Below, in pieces: positions 42,493 through 49,581 of a stretch of DNA of 64,000 bases. Under the pieces are notes generated by a model. That model did not search any database, had not been told where the DNA came from, and saw only the letters and a program-made list of their open reading frames with translations. Where the stretch lies: assembly GCA_018660415.1 (NCBI GenBank), contig JABJKG010000010.1, positions 2,405 through 66,404 of the forward strand, written 5' to 3'. Each line of letters starts with the position of its first letter. Within the stretch, counting starts at the first letter, position 1. The DNA comes from a bacterium. GTDB lineage: Bacteria > Babelota > Babeliae > Babelales > UBA12409. Made by a program: the position numbers and the translations under genes.

Positions 42493-43806
42493 GTGAACCT
42501 AATTTGGACGGTTGTTAACAAATTTTTGGCTGGATCGCGGGTAATAATCATAGTATTACTCGTTTTTATTGTGCCAAAGTTTTATATTGCGATTGCAGAA
42601 AATTCGCAACCGATTCCTATTGTTGAGACTGAGTTCAAGTTGGGGATTGAAAATATCACACCACAGTTTTTATATCATTTTGTTGATGGTCCTAAGCCGA
42701 TACGGGTTGGATTGGTTTCTAATCATACGGGCGTTACACAAACGGGTAAGCGGAATATCGAAGTCTTTCTTGGCCATGGAATTCATCTTAAAAAACTTTA
42801 TGCACCTGAGCATGGTTTTTCTGGTAAGACCGGAGCAGAAAAGAAAATATATAATGAAGTGGACACAGCTTCTCGATTGCCGGTAGTGAGTCTTTATGAA
42901 GGAAATAGTCAGTTTAAGAAGTTCAGTCCTGAAGAGTTAAAAGACATTGATGCATTCTTCTTTGAGATGCAGGATTGTGGAATGCGACATTATACGTATT
43001 TCCCTGTTTTATATAAATGTATGGAGTTGGCTGCCGAGCATGGCAAAAAGATTGTCGTCTTTGATCGGCCTAATCCATTGGGTGGTGTTATGGAAGGACC
43101 ATTGGTCGATCCTGGCAATAACTCATTTATATCTATTGCTAACTATCCGTTGCGGCACGGTATGACCATGGGTGAGCTAGCTTTGTATTGTAATGATAAG
43201 CTGCTCAAAAAAAAGGCCAAGCTGTATGTGGTTCCTATGAAAAACTATGATCGTAGTAAAGATTCAATGCCATTGTTAACAGCCTTATCTCCAAATATTC
43301 CTACACTTGATGCGTGTAAGGGGTATGGATTTTTGGGTATCATGGGAGAAATTGGACCATTTACAACTGGTGTTGGGACTAAAAAGTCATTCCAGTTTAT
43401 AGGGCTACCAAAAGATCTTAATGTCCCTATGTCCAAGTGGTATGCGTTAAAAGAGAAGCTCAAGCGACATGGTATTCAAAGTAAGGGCGCGACTTTCTAT
43501 GACGCCAAGAAAAAAGCTTATGTCCGTGGTTTGAATATTGTTATTGAAGATCCTAACGGCCTATCATCATTTAATGCGTTGATTGAAATTATGAGGCATT
43601 TTAAAGATTCAGGTCTCAAGTATTCTTTTGGGCCAGCATTTAATAAGGCTGTCGGGATTGATGATTTTAAAGCATGTATCCAAGGCAGTGGCGATTATGG
43701 AAAGCTTGCAAGCAAGGTTAATGTTCAATTGAAAAAGTTCCATACACAGGCTGAACCGTACTTTATTTATAAAGCACATCCAACTATTTGTGCCTGCCAG
43801 GCCTAA
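42493..43806 (+). CDS. namZ: Exo-beta-N-acetylmuramidase NamZ (DUF1343) family
   Basis: VGLVSNHTG, APEHG, SLY, QDCG.R.YTY, DRPNP, RHGMTMGELA and SPNIP motifs. Confidence 0.88.
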   Translation: MNLIWTVVNKFLAGSRVIIIVLLVFIVPKFYIAIAENSQPIPIVETEFKLGIENITPQFLYHFVDGPKPIRVGLVSNHTGVTQTGKRNIEVFLGHGIHLKKLYAPEHGFSGKTGAEKKIYNEVDTASRLPVVSLYEGNSQFKKFSPEELKDIDAFFFEMQDCGMRHYTYFPVLYKCMELAAEHGKKIVVFDRPNPLGGVMEGPLVDPGNNSFISIANYPLRHGMTMGELALYCNDKLLKKKAKLYVVPMKNYDRSKDSMPLLTALSPNIPTLDACKGYGFLGIMGEIGPFTTGVGTKKSFQFIGLPKDLNVPMSKWYALKEKLKRHGIQSKGATFYDAKKKAYVRGLNIVIEDPNGLSSFNALIEIMRHFKDSGLKYSFGPAFNKAVGIDDFKACIQGSGDYGKLASKVNVQLKKFHTQAEPYFIYKAHPTICACQA

Positions 43807-44195
43807 CCTTGTTTTATCGGTAGTGCATACTTTCTTACTCGGTAGTACAACTCTTTAGGATTGAGGCCAATAATTCTGTATAAGATTCTTCCTTCTTTAA
43901 AAAATACAATGAATGGAAGATAATAGACCTTTAAATATTCTTTAAGCTCATCGGTAACATCGTCCACATTAATCGAAGCAAAGTGCATTCTATCAGGTCC
44001 AAATGTTTGTTCTAATTGTTCAAACACTGGCTGTATAGACTTGCAAGCTCCACACCAGCTTGCATAAAACTTAATGGCTGTTGGCTTATCATGAAAAAGA
44101 TGGGTCTCGAGTTCAGCTTGATCAAATGTTGGTTGCATGGCTATTGTTTGTGTTGAAACAATAGCCATACAGGTTAATACAAATCTGTTATTCAT
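43803..44195 (-). CDS. Thioredoxin-like protein with signal peptide
   Basis: KFYASWCGAC active site and cis-Pro loop YYLP. Confidence 0.88.
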   Translation of the reverse strand: MNNRFVLTCMAIVSTQTIAMQPTFDQAELETHLFHDKPTAIKFYASWCGACKSIQPVFEQLEQTFGPDRMHFASINVDDVTDELKEYLKVYYLPFIVFFKEGRILYRIIGLNPKELYYRVRKYALPIKQG

Positions 44196-44214
44196 AGTGT
44201 AGGTAGTGAAATGT

Positions 44215-44595
44215 TTATCTTCCGCTGTAACGGGTAATGAGTTTAGTTAAATCTGCCGGGCTGTTACCAAGAACACGGTGAATGATCTGTCCGTTCTTAA
44301 AGAAGAGCACGAGTGGAATACGATGTGCGCCATACTTTTTTTTCAGAGCGGATGCATTATCGATATTAACAGCGATAAAATTAATAGCTTCTCCTCCAAA
44401 CTTATTTTCCAGTTGGATATAGGTTTTATTGAGGGTCTTGCATGGGCCACACCAATTGGCATAGAACTTTACCACTGTAACCTTACCTTGATTAATATAA
44501 GAGTTAAGTTGTGCCTGTGTGCTTACTTCAATAGCACTAAATAACTGTAATGAGATAAATGAAGATGCTAACAATAACGCTAATTTTTTCATCAT
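44215..44595 (-). CDS. Thioredoxin with signal peptide
   Basis: KFYANWCGPC; MMKKLALLLASSFISLQLFSA N-terminus. Confidence 0.9.
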   Translation of the reverse strand: MMKKLALLLASSFISLQLFSAIEVSTQAQLNSYINQGKVTVVKFYANWCGPCKTLNKTYIQLENKFGGEAINFIAVNIDNASALKKKYGAHRIPLVLFFKNGQIIHRVLGNSPADLTKLITRYSGR

Positions 44596-44608
44596 ACAAC
44601 CTTTTTGG

Positions 44609-45874
44609 TTATTTAATATGGCGCTTGATCTGTTTTTCAAAAGTATCAGTACTGACGCCTGTTATTTTATCTACTTCTTTGCCGCCTTTGAAGATTTTGA
44701 TATGAGGAATAGAATGAACCCCGTATTGTTGCGCGATGTCGCGTGCATCATCAATATTGATGGATATAAAGTTCATATCATCACTATATTCTTTTGAGAG
44801 TGACTCAAAGATAGGTTTGACTACTTGGCATGGTCCGCACCAGCTAGCATAGAACTTAACCGCTGTTGGTTTTCCTTGGCCGGTATATTTATTTAATTCT
44901 TCAATAGTTGTTACTTCGATATGTGTAGGTTTTTTAGGAGCCGGCTTTGGAGCTGGTTTCTTTTTTTCCTTAACAGGGATCTTGATTTTCTTAGTAGCCT
45001 TTTTTTCTGCGGGCTTAGGTGCTGGAGCTTCTACCTTTTTTTTAGGAGCTGGCTTTGGCGCTGGTTTTTTGACAGCCTTCACAGGTTTTTTCAATGTTGA
45101 TTCATGGAGTTCTTGTGTATGGCTCTCAAGTTGTGGTTTATCAGCACCAGAGATTTCTTTGACTTGCTTGCCTTTGTTAAATGAGATAAAGGTTGGGAAT
45201 CCTTGAACTTGGAACTTATCGGCAAGTTCTGCAGCTTTATCACCATCGACTTCGATAAACGTTACGCTTTCTTCAAAATCTGAAGCGAGCTTATCAAATG
45301 CTGGCTTAATTTTTTTACAATAACCACACCAGTTAGTATAAAATTTAACAATAACCGGTTTTCCACTCTTAATATGTTTGTTTAGTTCGTCATGTGAAGT
45401 TACTGTCTTAACTGGCCCTTCAGCAGTAGCTTCCATGGTTATTGTTGTAGGCTGTTCTGGCTCAGGTGCTTTAACTTCAGCAGCTTTTTTAGCCTTAGGC
45501 GCCACTACAGCAACCTGGCTTTTCAAGGCTGGATAATCACCAACAACACGCTTGGTTTCTTGTTCATAGTCATGGAATGCAAAGGTAGGAACTCCACCAA
45601 CCTTATATTTTTTTGCAATCTTGGCACCCTCACCCTTAGAGATATCAACGATAATAAAAGTTATGTCAGCATTATCTTTAGCTAGTTCATTGAATATAGG
45701 GCTTTTGCAAGCACCACACCAAGGCGCTGTGAACTTAATAACCGAGTAGGGAGATTTTTTTAATGTTTCATCGAGTACACTTTGAGTCGTAATGAGTTCA
45801 GGACCATCCATTTGCTTGCTGTGTAAGCTAATCGATAAAATCAAGGGCAAGAATAATAAGCGAGAAAATTTCAT
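44609..45874 (-). CDS. Secreted triple-thioredoxin-domain protein
   Basis: Signal peptide; WCGAC, WCGYC and WCGPC domains joined by Pro/Ala/Lys-rich linkers. Confidence 0.92.
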   Translation of the reverse strand: MKFSRLLFLPLILSISLHSKQMDGPELITTQSVLDETLKKSPYSVIKFTAPWCGACKSPIFNELAKDNADITFIIVDISKGEGAKIAKKYKVGGVPTFAFHDYEQETKRVVGDYPALKSQVAVVAPKAKKAAEVKAPEPEQPTTITMEATAEGPVKTVTSHDELNKHIKSGKPVIVKFYTNWCGYCKKIKPAFDKLASDFEESVTFIEVDGDKAAELADKFQVQGFPTFISFNKGKQVKEISGADKPQLESHTQELHESTLKKPVKAVKKPAPKPAPKKKVEAPAPKPAEKKATKKIKIPVKEKKKPAPKPAPKKPTHIEVTTIEELNKYTGQGKPTAVKFYASWCGPCQVVKPIFESLSKEYSDDMNFISINIDDARDIAQQYGVHSIPHIKIFKGGKEVDKITGVSTDTFEKQIKRHIK

Positions 45875-46254
45875 AAAAATAACTCCTATATAGGGATTCG
45901 TTTTTTAACTTTCGTACCCAGTCTACAAAAAAAAACTATAATGGTACATTACTGCTGGTTTGCTGGACTATATGCAACAAAAGAAGGTTGAAAGAGTTGT
46001 TTTAATGCTTCCAGAAAAGTTATAAGCTTCTCGATTTTGAGTGATGAGGTACAGAAAAGAAAGAGAGTGAGCATGTTACGTCTTGCTTTGAAGGCTTTTG
46101 TTACGTAGGACTAGGAGCCATGATATACTAGTGGGGTTATGAAGGCAAGAATCGATTGCCCGCTTTGTATTTTTAAACCCCTGTCATGATTAATTTTAAA
46201 CCCATGTATTCAATCATAACTGACAAAGTGGAAACTCGATAAGAAAGGAGAACT

Positions 46255-47235
46255 ATGCCGATAATCAATAGTAAGAGCGACCAGAACAAAATACTTCCAA
46301 TGTCTTATCTTTGGGCCCATAAATATTTTAGACACAGCATGACGCGTCAATGGATGCCAGAAGATATTTCCATGCAATTGGATGTTGAGCAGTGGCGATC
46401 TATGAATATTTTGACAGATGATGAACGTACAATGGTCTTACGTAATATTGGTTACTTTTCTACGGCAAGTTCGTTTATGGCGGATAATATTGTATTAACA
46501 GCTTATAAACATATAACTAATCCGGAATGTAGACAGTATTTGTTAAGGCAGGCATATGAAACGTCTATTCATACTGACGCCTTTATTCAATGTTGTGACA
46601 CGCTTGGTCTTGACCCTGATGAGATATATTCAATGCATCAGAATATTGAGACGATTAAGGCAAAGGATGATTTTGTAGCCAAGTTTGCAGTCCCTTTAAA
46701 AGATCCTAAGTTTTCTATTACGAGTACCAAGGGTATTCAGCAGTTTGTATTGAATTTAGTAGGGAACTACGTTGTCATGGAAGGATTATTTTTCTATACC
46801 AGTTTTGCCATGATGTTGATGTTACGGCGACGAGATAAAATGGCTGGTGTTGGTCAGTTGTTTGAAAATATCATGCAAGATGCAACGGTACACCTTGCTT
46901 TTGGGTGTGACATCATTAAAGAAATTTGTATTGAAAACCCTAAGGTTTGGACTCCAGCATTCAAGAGTGAGATCATTGACATGATCAAAGAAGCTGTCGA
47001 CTTAGAAAAAGAATATGTGTCGGAAGCATGTCCGCATGGGCTTATGGGTATTGATGCTGTTTTGTTTAGTCAGTACATAGACTATATAGCTGACACTCGA
47101 TTAGAACAGATCGGTTTACCGAAACTATTCCAACAGGTGAACCCATTCAAGTGGTTATCGCAATCAGTGAGCATGAAAGACAAGGGCGTATTCAATAGCT
47201 CGCATGAATATCACACCAGTGATGTAAAATGGTAA
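46255..47235 (+). CDS. Ribonucleotide reductase beta subunit homolog (class Ic-like) lacking most metal ligands
   Basis: W.P.DISM..D...W, ITNPECRQYLLRQA, MEGLFFY, YIADTRL..IGL and NPF.W identify the R2 family. Ligand positions read S72/T103/H106/E176/A210/H213. AAGGAG RBS. Confidence 0.9.
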   Translation: MPIINSKSDQNKILPMSYLWAHKYFRHSMTRQWMPEDISMQLDVEQWRSMNILTDDERTMVLRNIGYFSTASSFMADNIVLTAYKHITNPECRQYLLRQAYETSIHTDAFIQCCDTLGLDPDEIYSMHQNIETIKAKDDFVAKFAVPLKDPKFSITSTKGIQQFVLNLVGNYVVMEGLFFYTSFAMMLMLRRRDKMAGVGQLFENIMQDATVHLAFGCDIIKEICIENPKVWTPAFKSEIIDMIKEAVDLEKEYVSEACPHGLMGIDAVLFSQYIDYIADTRLEQIGLPKLFQQVNPFKWLSQSVSMKDKGVFNSSHEYHTSDVKW

Positions 47236-47240
47236 AATAA

Positions 47241-47265
47241 AAAGGCCTCTTTTAAAGAGGCCTTT
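47241..47265. terminator. Bidirectional intrinsic terminator
   Basis: aaaggcctctt / aagaggccttt inverted repeat between convergent genes. Confidence 0.8.
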
Positions 47266-47318
47266 CTATTTATAAAAGTAATCTAAATGTTACTCTGCTC
47301 TAGAAGTTTTTCTGCTTC

Positions 47319-47717
47319 TTATGCTGCTTCTTCGTGAGCAGGTTCCAGTACGCCGTCAAGAACAGCAGCTTGAATTTTCATAATTTCAAGTTTAGCACAC
47401 GCTGATACTTCATCTTCGTTACCAGCAGCTTTTTTACACTCAGCAACTAATGCAAGAAGGCGAGCACTAAGAGTGTTAAGGTCTTCGCTGAGGGCTTCTT
47501 CTACTTCAGCGGCAAGTTTTTGACGTTCATCTGCACATGCTTGTGCTTCAGCAAGAATTTCAGCATATTCACGAGGAGTTGTAGCTTCTACAACTGCAGC
47601 AACATCTTCAGCAGTTATTTCTGTTGGAGCTGGAACTTCAGTAGTTTCTGAGTTTTCAGCATAAGCACCGGAAACAAGTGTTAATAGAGCTAATGGTAGG
47701 AGTAATTGCTTTTTCAT
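47319..47717 (-). CDS. Secreted acidic, Ala/Glu-rich helical protein
   Basis: MKKQLLLPLALLTLVSGAYA signal peptide; strongly biased codons (GCT, GAA). Confidence 0.8.
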   Translation of the reverse strand: MKKQLLLPLALLTLVSGAYAENSETTEVPAPTEITAEDVAAVVEATTPREYAEILAEAQACADERQKLAAEVEEALSEDLNTLSARLLALVAECKKAAGNEDEVSACAKLEIMKIQAAVLDGVLEPAHEEAA

Positions 47718-47928
47718 AGAAAAGCCTTTCTTGTGTAAATAAAAAAAGTGTTTCACTGCTATTTTAAAAAGCACTGTTATTAAAGGATTGTAAAATGAAA
47801 GCAAGAGGAAATAAGCGAGTTATAAACCACGGGCTTTGATGTTATTATTCCTGAAGTAAAAAATGCTGTTATTAAAATATGGTTTTTATTGTAAGTTTAT
47901 TTTTTCATAAGTCAAATATAAAACAAAG

Positions 47929-47960
47929 TAAAAAGCTCCGATTTTACTCGAAGCTTTTTA
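47929..47960 (-). terminator. Probable intrinsic terminator
   Basis: taaaaagct...agcttttta just downstream of 47979-48461. Confidence 0.55.
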
Positions 47961-47978
47961 TTATTTTATATTTAGGTC

Positions 47979-48461
47979 TTACTGTAGGGATACCCTTATG
48001 TAGCGAACTAATTCGGATAGTTCCATAGTTCCGTGATATACGGAGCCGGGGATTCTGCGGCCCTTATTGTAGACTGCTAGCATTGGGGTTCGCGTTACAA
48101 TAAATAGTTTTGCAATGCCGGGATATTTTGCTGCGTTAACTTTAATGATTCTTACTTTCAAATTAATTTGTTGGGCATGGGCGTGTAGTTCTTTAAATAC
48201 GGAGTGCATCTGGTCACACGCTGAGCAACTTGGTTGATAAAATTCGATAACGGTTGGTTTTGTTCTAATTACTTCATGCAGTAAGGTGGACGGTTTCATG
48301 CCAGGAAACTGCTTCAACAGTTCATCAAATTCTATAACCCCATGAACACGGTCAATACGTTGTTGTAATAAGGTTACATTTCTGTCGACCTGGCGTGCTT
48401 GTGGTAGTAGTGAGTTGCTTATTAAACAGAGGCCGGCAAGGGTTATTATTTTCAATTTCAT
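47979..48461 (-). CDS. Secreted thioredoxin-fold protein (CSAC)
   Basis: Signal peptide; IEFYQPSCSAC, IIKVN and cis-Pro RTP. Confidence 0.8.
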   Translation of the reverse strand: MKLKIITLAGLCLISNSLLPQARQVDRNVTLLQQRIDRVHGVIEFDELLKQFPGMKPSTLLHEVIRTKPTVIEFYQPSCSACDQMHSVFKELHAHAQQINLKVRIIKVNAAKYPGIAKLFIVTRTPMLAVYNKGRRIPGSVYHGTMELSELVRYIRVSLQ

Positions 48462-48591
48462 TTATTCTCCTTTTTAATTATACATTACTTTAGAACTAGT
48501 AAAATTTGCAAAGATATGACAAGCTTTGAGTTAAAGAATTCAGTATTGCATGTATAGTGCGATATATTATAAAAATTTTTAATTAAGGTTA

Positions 48592-49581
48592 TTGATGAAA
48601 ACAGTACAACGGAATCTGTTATTGCTTTTGGGATTGGGTCTTGTGTCATTGAATGTATTACCCATATCTTCTTTGGAAGAATTGTTTACAAGCCAGCATT
48701 CAATTTGGGTGTATTTAATTACATCTTTTTTGGCGGGATTGGCTGTTAGTTTTACCCCGTGTATTTACCCTATGATTCCTATTACAGCGGGTGTGTTGCA
48801 AGCGCACCAACGTAAGAGTCACTGGTATAATTTTTTATTAGCATTATCATATGTGCTTGGTATTGCTACTATTTATTCCGCTCTAGGTTACTTTGTTGCT
48901 ATGAGTGGAGATTATTTTGGTTATTGGCTTGGTAACCCTTGGTTTGTTGCGTTCATGTTCTGTTTTTTCTTGTATTTAGCAGGATCGATGTTTGGTTTTT
49001 ATGATCTTTCATTGCCGAGTTTTTTGACGCGTAAGCGTGCGTCAGTCAAGGGTGGCGGTTCATTTATATATACATTTGTTGTTGGGATGGTAAGTGGAAC
49101 GGTTGCTTCACCATGCGTATCACCAGCGCTGATTGCTATCTTAGGGTTTGTAGCACAGAGTGAACGTCCAATCGTGGGTATTGTATCATTATTCTTCTTT
49201 ACGCTCGGGATGAGTACAATTTTATTATTAGTGGGTACTTTTTCTTCAATTTTATCTAAACTTCCACGTGCTGGTGTTTGGATGTTGGAAATCAATCGTG
49301 CGCTTGGTTTTTTAATTCTTTTTATTGGTGTTAACTTTATTTTACCGTTTGTTCCTGATAATGCAGAACCCGTGTTATACGGTTGTATTTTATTGGGTGC
49401 AGCAGCTTATTATTGGTTTTCTGATAACGTGCAACATACGGCATCTCGTTTTATTAAAAAGTTGGTTGGACTAATTTTGTTTTTACTAGGTCTTGCATTT
49501 GTTCTTGATCCAATTCTATCATCATATAATGTATCAGTAGTGAACCATATTTTTGTAATAGCATCGTCCGTTAAAGGATAA
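48592..49581 (+). CDS. DsbD/CcdA-type transmembrane electron transporter
   Basis: SFTPCIYPMIP and ASPCVSP redox-Cys motifs; LPRAGVWM; transmembrane domain only. Confidence 0.9.
   Translation: MMKTVQRNLLLLLGLGLVSLNVLPISSLEELFTSQHSIWVYLITSFLAGLAVSFTPCIYPMIPITAGVLQAHQRKSHWYNFLLALSYVLGIATIYSALGYFVAMSGDYFGYWLGNPWFVAFMFCFFLYLAGSMFGFYDLSLPSFLTRKRASVKGGGSFIYTFVVGMVSGTVASPCVSPALIAILGFVAQSERPIVGIVSLFFFTLGMSTILLLVGTFSSILSKLPRAGVWMLEINRALGFLILFIGVNFILPFVPDNAEPVLYGCILLGAAAYYWFSDNVQHTASRFIKKLVGLILFLLGLAFVLDPILSSYNVSVVNHIFVIASSVKG

Follow-up and report, generated by a model that had tools for sequence, protein, structure and literature searches.

The 64,000-nucleotide (nt) stretch of DNA analysed here (hereafter the window) comes from a genome of candidate division TM6 (Dependentiae), whose members are intracellular bacteria with small genomes, and carries, at positions 46255-47235, a gene for a homolog of R2 (NrdB), the radical-generating beta subunit of class I ribonucleotide reductase (RNR). 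The product, hereafter the R2-like protein, is of the class Ic type (R2c), but three of the six ligands of the dimetal site are replaced. On our best reading of the evidence, it is a class Ic beta subunit left behind when the class Ic enzyme was replaced by a class II RNR, and kept by selection as a non-radical protein. Our confidence in this evolutionary account, in which nrdB outlived a deleted nrdA upon class II replacement, is much higher than our confidence in any mechanism proposed for the protein. Coordinates refer to the window unless another contig or locus is named.

Ligand sites of the R2-like protein and its clade

The gene, its signals and the codons of the sites discussed here are as follows.

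46245-46250, forward strand: Shine-Dalgarno (SD) sequence AAGGAG, read from the sequence, with the ATG 4 nt downstream
46255-47235, forward strand: coding sequence of the ligand-deficient class Ic-type R2 (NrdB) homolog, 326 residues plus stop (open reading frame (ORF), Pfam and NCBIfam matches, alignment to 1syy, AlphaFold2 (AF2) model)
46468-46470, forward strand: codon of S72
46561-46563, forward strand: codon of T103
46570-46572, forward strand: codon of H106
46582-46584, forward strand: codon of F110
46780-46782, forward strand: codon of E176
46882-46884, forward strand: codon of A210
46891-46893, forward strand: codon of H213
47209-47211, forward strand: codon of the tail Tyr, Y319
47241-47265, no strand assigned: intrinsic-terminator-like, G+C-rich hairpin of 11 bp (AAAGGCCTCTT/AAGAGGCCTTT) followed by a T-rich run, starting 6 nt past the stop codon

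A preliminary description of this gene had reported an intact frame of 326 codons with a strong ribosome-binding site and a terminator of its own, and the open frame, the AAGGAG and the 11-bp hairpin bear this out. The R2-like protein matches PF00268 (Ribonuc_red_sm) at 3e-73 (247 bits against a cut-off of 33.6 bits), over profile positions 2-281 of 281, and reaches 411.8 bits with the NCBIfam equivalog NF005550, for which the cut-off is 309, so that automatic pipelines will call it an RNR beta subunit. Its closest solved relative is the class Ic R2 of Chlamydia trachomatis (1syy, 5.6e-100), to which the ligand helices align without gaps. At a constant offset of 17 residues, E89, E120 and E227 of the C. 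trachomatis protein are replaced by S72 (FSTAES/FSTASS), T103 (FEEAVH/YETSIH) and A210 (RDETIH/QDATVH), respectively, while H123, F127, E193 and H230 are kept as H106, F110, E176 (within MEG) and H213; the offset and every substitution listed in the preliminary description were reproduced in this alignment. The six-ligand set of class Ic, E/E/H/E/E/H, reads S/T/H/E/A/H here, and a Phe (F110, aligned with F127 of C. trachomatis) takes the place of the radical Tyr, as in class Ic. W47, D209 and Y319 (in HEYH) are also retained, and the canonical KEKNFFETR stretch reads DKGVFNSSH, in agreement with the earlier statement that the Trp, the Asp and the tail Tyr were kept and the NFFE motif was degenerate. 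The N-terminus is close to canonical (MPIINSKSDQNKILPMSYLW, against MPIINNSxxDPNKILPMSYLW in canonical proteins). An AF2 model of the R2-like protein (pLDDT 89.4; tail residues 306-326 disordered) superimposes on C. trachomatis NrdB (4m1i) with a TM score of 0.93 and a root mean square deviation of 0.9 A over 308 columns. We looked for an Asp, Glu or His near the ligand helices that might compensate for the lost ligands, and none was present among the 18 sites uniformly changed in the clade described below, the only new His residues being at positions 22 and 128. Because three of the six ligands are gone without replacements, the R2-like protein, as predicted from its sequence, cannot make the Mn/Fe oxidant of class Ic.

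The full E/E/H/F/E/E/H set (six ligands plus Phe) was found in each of 225 canonical comparators, that is, in 20/20 R2 genes of full length from the same order, in the 115 next-best database homologs (P0007-P0121; 115/115) and in all of 90 other R2 ORFs (80 found at metagenome loci, 10 at Dependentiae loci). Judged by these alignments, the three ligand substitutions are exceptional and are not due to chance. They are shared by a small clade. A collection of 5.8 billion proteins yielded the window protein, a 92% fragment, and P0004, P0005/P0271 and P0006 at 71-68% identity, after which the next matches fall to 58% identity and are canonical; canonical Dependentiae R2c proteins are about 55% identical to the R2-like protein. 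The clade holds four distinct full-length sequences, all from Dependentiae (the source of P0004 is named 'candidate division TM6 bacterium' and that of P0271 'Candidatus Babeliales bacterium'); one member was deposited as 'ribonucleotide-diphosphate reductase subunit beta' and another as 'hypothetical'. When metagenome contigs were scanned with the clade alignment, the best 80 of 588 relatives were all at most 58% identical and canonical, with no new clade member among them, and a scan of 261 Dependentiae species genomes gave identities above 60% only in the genome of the window and in that of a congener. In a quick tree the clade is monophyletic (SH-aLRT 100), with a stem of 1.27 changes per site against a median of 0.12 for terminal branches, and the R2-like protein nests inside R2c.

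Across the four full-length members the first carboxylate site reads S/S/C/S, the second T/M/M/L and the fourth A/Q/Q/A. The former dimetal site has in this way gained small or hydrophobic residues (S/C, T/M/L, A/Q) and kept one Glu and two His: H106, E176 and H213, as well as F110, are present in 4/4. The position of C. trachomatis Y222, which we take to be the electron relay during cofactor activation, is occupied by Y (63) or F (27) in the 90 canonical ORFs and by N/N/N/H in the clade. Of the tail signature NFFE...Y...W, the NFFE is gone, the Tyr (Y319) is found in three of the four members and the terminal aromatic residue in two; the last eight residues are alike in three of the four (EYHTSDVKW, QYHTTEVKY, EYHTTDIDI).

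A second ligand-poor R2c-like protein, P0124 (333 residues, from a metagenome contig of 1816 nt), reads S/G/H/I/E/V/Q: the same three carboxylate positions are lost, the last His is a Gln and the Phe an Ile, and the canonical tail is kept (FFDTRVGEY...EWE). Its identity to the window protein is 43%. A long branch connects P0124 with the clade (SH-aLRT 91), and since long branches meet at this point we are not certain that it is the sister. Genome contigs scanned with P0124 contained no relative above 47%. Degenerate ligand sets were also seen, on the profile alignment, in many representatives of R2-family clusters formed at 50% identity (P0146-P0252), for example SAHCQLQ in P0175 ('hypothetical protein', from Rhodocyclaceae metagenome-assembled genomes), SAHCLLH in P0170, SERFKNH in P0163 and AERFEQH in P0172, although at 30-36% identity these patterns may include alignment errors. 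R2 homologs poor in ligands may be more frequent than one would gather from the literature.

RNR genes of the genome and the nrdB locus

The genome to which the window belongs (G000; 1.08 Mb, 14 contigs, 98% complete) has a single R2 match, which is the window gene. The sole PF02867 match, and the only RNR catalytic subunit found, is encoded outside the window.

C12:7042-9303 (locus L002:649-2913), reverse strand: class II RNR, 754 residues, with an N-terminal ATP-cone (TIGR02505)

This protein has RNR_Alpha and RNR-II insertion domains, and its best match is the adenosylcobalamin-dependent ribonucleoside-triphosphate reductase (RTPR) model TIGR02505, at 3.6e-87 and with a score below the 340-bit cut-off; we refer to it as RTPR-like. 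Searches of G000 for NrdD and for NrdI (PF07972) gave no match. The lack of nrdA, pointed out earlier for the window, holds for the whole of G000: tblastn with the NrdA proteins of five relatives revealed no class I alpha (best E 0.91), and the class I alpha model NF009029, which matches the full-length NrdA adjoining nrdB in relatives with a canonical R2c, had, in both G000 and the congener (G001, 94% complete), no match other than the ATP-cone of the class II protein. G001 has the same set of genes as G000, i.e., R2-like, RTPR-like and no NrdA. The cognate class I alpha of a working R2c was thus found in neither genome, and because no class I alpha was found, a role for the R2-like protein in an RNR is very unlikely.

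These results bear on the proposal of the preliminary description, namely that the protein is a non-catalytic beta-prime subunit comparable to yeast Rnr4, which would act on a canonical class Ic RNR from other genes of the genome, as its chaperone, regulator or inhibitor. Its non-catalytic nature is upheld. The R2 fold without a full ligand set does recall Rnr4 (1jk0_B is matched at 3.8e-18), and both genomes are draft assemblies. However, no canonical nrdAB was found elsewhere: neither G000 nor G001 has a second R2 or a class I alpha, nrdA is deleted at the ancestral locus, where the gene is the nrdB ortholog and not an extra paralog (see below), and R2, class I alpha and the RTPR-like gene are all missing from the other six genomes of the family (G002-G007, 91-94% complete). 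The canonical partner falls away, and we regard the Rnr4-like reading as close to refuted and its truth as hardly credible. The fallback offered at the same time, a repurposed ferritin-like protein, is the reading left standing.

The RTPR-like gene is found in 3/41 sampled Dependentiae genomes, namely G000, G001 (83% identity) and a genome from another family (G019; 66% identity). Since its nearest homologs outside the phylum are proteins of Patescibacteria (about 65% identity, annotated as ribonucleoside-triphosphate reductase or as ATP-cone protein), the comparison suggests that the enzyme was horizontally acquired. G019 carries the RTPR-like gene and has no R2 match. G000 also codes for a PduO-type cobalamin adenosyltransferase (2.3e-42) and for four TLC-type nucleotide transporters. 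Given the RTPR-like homologs, the genome without R2, the adenosyltransferase and the transporters, the class II route looks self-sufficient, and the gene content would provide a path from imported nucleoside triphosphates (NTPs) to deoxynucleoside triphosphates (dNTPs) that looks complete without any beta subunit.

The co-occurrence of the RTPR-like gene with the ligand-less R2 in 2/2 genomes raises a different possibility, that the relic binds the RTPR-like enzyme or its ATP-cone and tunes activity, stability or localisation. The extreme C-terminus, which in real R2 proteins is the alpha-binding element, is better kept between the two species (YHTSDVKW/YHTTEVKY) than is the linker that precedes it. 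Against this stand the distribution of the RTPR-like family, which is widespread in Patescibacteria, where the matches are named RTPR or ATP-cone protein and, to our knowledge, the enzyme occurs without R2; the RTPR-like gene of G019, without an R2 match; and the lack of linkage, the RTPR-like gene being on contig C12 and the R2-like gene on contig C1. In class II enzymes the radical source is adenosylcobalamin, and we know of no need for a beta subunit. The predicted complex of RTPR-like residues 106-754 (without the ATP-cone) with the R2-like protein gave ipSAE values of 0.00 and 0.00, which speak neither for nor against an interaction. We consider an accessory or regulator of the class II RNR improbable.

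Throughout the phylum, an R2c match at E ≤ 1e-20 is missing from 84/261 Dependentiae species genomes, and from 62/189 of those at least 90% complete, NrdD not having been searched for in these genomes; many Dependentiae may make no dNTPs themselves. Two other genomes have class Ic genes that look damaged: at G033:C4:40793-43235 nrdA consists of two overlapping frames, and at G031:C32:51979-52759 a short NrdA fragment with an in-frame TGA accompanies a partial R2 of 222 residues. They may show class Ic loss at an earlier stage, or the assemblies may be wrong here. G000 further codes for a second ATP-cone protein (283 residues; C5:215157-215366, locus L004:1489-2340, forward strand), which by eye is unlike NrdR.

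The surroundings of the R2-like gene indicate how it came to stand alone.

42493-43806, forward strand: NamZ-family gene, synteny anchor (order NamZ - thioredoxins - nrdA - nrdB in relative L041)
44609-45874, reverse strand: secreted three-domain thioredoxin, divergent neighbour, syntenic in the congener; flanks nrdA in canonical relatives
45875-46254, no strand: 380-bp spacer where relatives have nrdA (synteny)
47979-48461, reverse strand: thioredoxin, downstream syntenic neighbour, adjoining the R2-like gene in the congener too
48592-49581, forward strand: DsbD_TM/CcdA-like membrane protein, downstream syntenic neighbour, conserved in the congener

In three relatives (L040, L041, L042) the order is thioredoxin(s) - nrdA - nrdB, with NamZ alongside in L041, and in the window it is NamZ - three thioredoxin genes - 380-bp spacer - R2-like gene. 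By this synteny, the R2-like gene is the positional nrdB ortholog, in front of which nrdA was deleted. With the NrdA proteins of five relatives as queries, the spacer gave only noise (best E 1.6) and no nrdA remnant. G000 and G001 have the order thioredoxin - R2-like - thioredoxin - DsbD - pgi - zwf in common. The downstream thioredoxin and the DsbD_TM/CcdA-like protein look periplasmic, and we do not take them as functional partners of the R2-like protein. The region 43803-49581 holds four thioredoxin-family genes with signal peptides, for proteins of 130, 141, 421 (three-domain, with Lys/Pro/Ala-rich linkers) and 160 residues, and together with the DsbD_TM/CcdA-like protein this cluster looks like a periplasmic disulfide-reduction module. 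The terminator-like hairpin at 47241-47265 separates the R2-like gene from a convergent ORF (47319-47804, reverse strand, 161 residues), which has an internal signal-peptide-like start (MKKQLLLPLALLTLVSGAYA) and an Ala/Glu-rich body. This ORF has no Pfam match and no BLAST match in the syntenic region of the congener; contigs from RNA libraries cover it.

Selection, transcription and possible roles

Ortholog conservation had been named as a check in the preliminary description. The ortholog in the congener is syntenic, intact and 72% identical, and there too the three glutamates are replaced, by S, M and Q. Between G000 and G001, the nonsynonymous divergence (dN) of the R2-like gene is 0.212, compared with 0.205 for zwf, 0.239 for pgi and 0.164 for DsbD. 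The Nei-Gojobori (NG86) omega is about 0.08, a value that is approximate only, the synonymous divergence (dS) being saturated (NG86 dS was undefined for three neighbouring genes). Because of this saturation we relied on counts by codon position and on a simulation of random placement. Differences between the two genes fall on 20.9/13.4/51.4% of first, second and third codon positions. When the same number and kinds of differences were placed at random, the mean identity was 46% and the maximum 53%, against the 72% observed; stop codons averaged 12 per run, and 0/2000 runs were stop-free. Codon positions and simulation together exclude neutral decay since the split of the two species. Thus, purifying selection on the R2-like gene is clear.

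Congeners in two canonical genera, with 70-75% identity in pgi and 77% in zwf, share 95.5-95.6% identity in R2c; those in the genus of the window, with 67% in pgi and 71% in zwf, share 71% in the R2-like protein. It follows from these figures that a working R2c evolves about six times more slowly than the R2-like protein, which keeps roughly the pace of housekeeping proteins. We then asked where constraint has changed, by comparing, across the four clade members, the 189 positions conserved to at least 95% in 114 canonical proteins. Ninety-eight of these are unchanged, 18 uniformly changed, 54 partly kept and 19 both changed and variable; the last group includes E72, E103, E210, S211 and most of 306-317 (the KEKNFFETR linker). 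Considering which sites changed in the clade, constraint as seen in these alignments is released exactly at the RNR-specific machinery, while the fold is retained, as are the N-terminal arm and W47/D209. The selection data and the site analysis sustain the earlier argument that selective ligand loss in a well-kept scaffold speaks against random decay. A non-functional relic in slow decay after the loss of nrdA would fit the loss of RNR-specific features (ligands and tail linker), the roughly six-fold faster evolution and long stem branch, and the disappearance of the gene from other genomes of the family. It is at odds with four full-length intact ORFs across diverged lineages, with the third-position bias and the simulations, of which 0/2000 stayed open or reached 72% identity, with a dN equal to that of zwf and pgi, and with the retention of the SD sequence and terminator and the presence of the gene in RNA libraries; we give this reading almost no credence.

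Contigs assembled from four marine RNA libraries (three studies) are 100% identical to the window and cover 46149-47293: X11 spans 46149-47293 and X13 46170-47196, and X17 and X18 are partial. The contigs start at 46149, 46151, 46151 and 46170 in the four RNA runs, and 45905-46147 is bare in 4/4; in DNA runs, every sampled word of 45900-47400 is present. The X11 contig ends at 47293, past the terminator-like site at 47241-47265. These contigs indicate a monocistronic transcript that starts about 105 nt upstream of the ATG, although for the exact end they give only a weak hint.

46121-46129, no strand assigned: possible extended -10 element (TGATATACT), read by eye

Many marine and seawater metagenome runs hold this stretch of the window; contig depths do not serve to rank expression.

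In the genus of the window nrdA was deleted and nrdB stayed, and in the course of events that we favour a horizontally acquired class II enzyme would have replaced the class Ic RNR. The leftover beta subunit has lost three carboxylates, the Tyr or Phe at the Y222 position and the NFFE part of the tail. It would assemble no dimetal cofactor and deliver no radical, with no class I alpha as a recipient, and, having neither cofactor nor class I alpha, would be an exapted pseudoenzyme. The four-helix-bundle dimer of R2 is probably kept, and the protein would probably act without redox chemistry, through partner binding, with the conserved surface and the C-terminal motif (E/Q)YHT(S/T)(D/E)(V/I)x(W/Y/I) as its likely contacts. 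A binding or scaffold role of this non-redox kind, which we reach by elimination, has our moderate confidence.

Several points weigh against this account. The mechanism of a binding protein is derived by eliminating others, and the tail motif on which it partly draws is absent from P0271, which ends in GHFTNFDLEV. G000 (98% complete) and G001 (94%) are in multiple contigs, so that a gene could be missing from the assembly, and the absence of alpha is established in two genomes, the other two clade members being available as proteins only. As to selection, dS is saturated, as noted, and the codon analysis rests on the one species pair for which there is DNA. The RNA evidence consists of assembled contigs, which do not show strand, level or exact ends. 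Finally, the His/Glu/His triad is invariant in the clade, which could mean a functional mononuclear or ligand-binding site.

This last point leads to a new ligand-binding or catalytic function in a remodelled core. With R2lox as the analogy, such a core would hold one metal ion or a small molecule. H106, E176 and H213 are invariant in 4/4 members while the three lost positions vary, the surroundings of the site (LLRQAYE, MEGxFFY) are strongly kept in the clade, selection on the gene is as strong as on housekeeping enzymes, and a paper on Geobacillus R2lox describes an R2 scaffold repurposed as an alkane oxygenase. However, since 61% of the sites conserved in canonical proteins are clade-invariant anyway, the invariance of the three is expected by chance about 1 time in 4 and is not significant. 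Moreover, the lost positions carry different residues in different members, as would not be expected of a precisely tuned site, the vicinity has gained no Asp, Glu or His, and the R2lox models score far below their cut-offs (NF006200, 40.3 against 194). By this analogy a remodelled core could exist, but we think it unlikely.

Remodelling of the protein has gone furthest in the tail, which could serve a host-directed mimic of R2: an exported protein whose tail would bind the class Ia alpha of a protist host and, as a dominant negative, manipulate the dNTP pools of the host. The protein has no signal peptide and no new N-terminal extension, and the resemblance of its tail to eukaryotic R2 tails, as we know them, is weak; these points tell against export and mimicry. 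In favour are the lifestyle of the lineage, which is intracellular and nucleotide-parasitic with four TLC transporters, and the precedent of poxvirus orphan R2 proteins, including a dominant-negative dead F4 R2 as described in PMC2900304. Drawn as it is by analogy, this idea seems to us very doubtful.

More broadly, a genuinely new job of the R2 scaffold, either with a His-Glu-His cofactor or ligand site or as a dead-beta decoy for a host or other-class RNR by way of the remodelled tail, is a tentative possibility. Either would make it the first pseudoenzyme derived from a bacterial R2 to have a defined function outside RNR or across RNR classes, and would show what a radical-generating subunit becomes once its partner is replaced by horizontal transfer. 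On the account that we prefer, of a leftover beta kept for binding, the clade, tiny as it is, shows a radical-generating subunit outliving its enzyme. It would amount to a natural experiment in enzyme replacement, with class Ic swapped for class II, alpha lost and beta selected after the loss of its cofactor site, and would mean that an R2 protein can possess, or come to possess, a function that does not depend on generating a radical. It is also a warning for annotation and metabolic reconstruction, as the protein scores above the RNR beta cut-off and yet belongs to a genome without a class I RNR.

Comparison with known systems

The R2c proteins of C. trachomatis (1SYY, 4M1I) and of other Dependentiae share with the R2-like protein the fold, the Phe site, W47, D209, the tail Tyr and the genomic position, whereas here three carboxylates are replaced, NFFE is lost, NrdA is missing and evolution is about six-fold faster. 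Yeast Rnr4 (Y4), the non-catalytic half of the Rnr2-Rnr4 heterodimer, is likewise an R2 fold without part of the ligand set, non-radical and under selection. It is, however, an extra paralog that needs the canonical Rnr2 and alpha, while the R2-like protein, which has an incomplete ligand set as well, is a sole ortholog with neither a canonical beta nor a class I alpha beside it. Y4 is described as lacking key radical-producing residues and as having a complementary role (PMC3824934).

According to the same source, the apicomplexan R2_e2 (PfR4) also forms a divergent, long-branched R2 clade of intact ORFs in a parasite lineage, for which radical formation is thought to be impossible (PMC3824934). 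R2_e2 is reported there to keep the iron-coordinating residues and a conserved C-terminus, to co-exist with a canonical R2 and to bind R1 and R2 (Munro et al. 2013, PMC3824934), unlike the protein studied here, which lost its ligands and has no RNR partners in its genome. An orphan beta without a cognate alpha has its parallel in the chordopoxviruses (vaccinia F4-like R2), most of which are described as encoding R2 only, which combines with host R1 into hybrid complexes; an F4 R2 devoid of catalytic activity is reported to be dominant negative through its C-terminal R1-binding domain (PMC2900304). The viral R2, however, is catalytically competent with host R1, whereas here the cofactor site is lost. 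R2lox, too, is an R2 scaffold working outside ribonucleotide reduction, but it is a separate family with a Mn/Fe site, and the ligands are missing here; membership of R2lox was rejected, on the NF006200 score given above, the lower scores of the other R2lox models and the lack of an intact Mn/Fe site. A literature search returned no paper on a ligand-deficient class Ic R2, on an orphan NrdB or on RNR evolution in Dependentiae.

The class Ie NrdF (Mesoplasma florum, 6GP2) comes close in that three of its four carboxylates are replaced and one carboxylate and two His are kept (10.1101/348268). As described by Srinivas et al. (10.1101/348268), it keeps Asp88, presumably the first ligand position, and two His, with three Glu replaced, one of them by Lys, and it needs a Tyr (converted to DOPA), NrdI and NrdE. 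The R2-like protein differs in each respect: class Ie derives from NrdF (class Ib), while our protein scores 64.7 with TIGR04171 (cut-off 355) and nests in R2c, its ligand set has lost the first carboxylate, retains a Glu and includes no Lys, the Tyr is a Phe in 4/4 clade members, PF07972 (NrdI) has no match in G000 and no class I alpha was found there. The preliminary description was therefore right that class Ie loses a different set of ligands, in agreement with the account cited, and right also that its route is closed to a protein with Phe. Because of the Phe at the Tyr site and the failure to find NrdI, the R2-like protein, as far as sequence and gene content can tell, cannot work in the manner of class Ie. 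R2-derived pseudo-subunits are already known as a kind, of which the R2-like protein is apparently an undescribed case; class Ie set the precedent that a ligand-less R2 may hide new chemistry, and a second, different pattern of loss merits attention.

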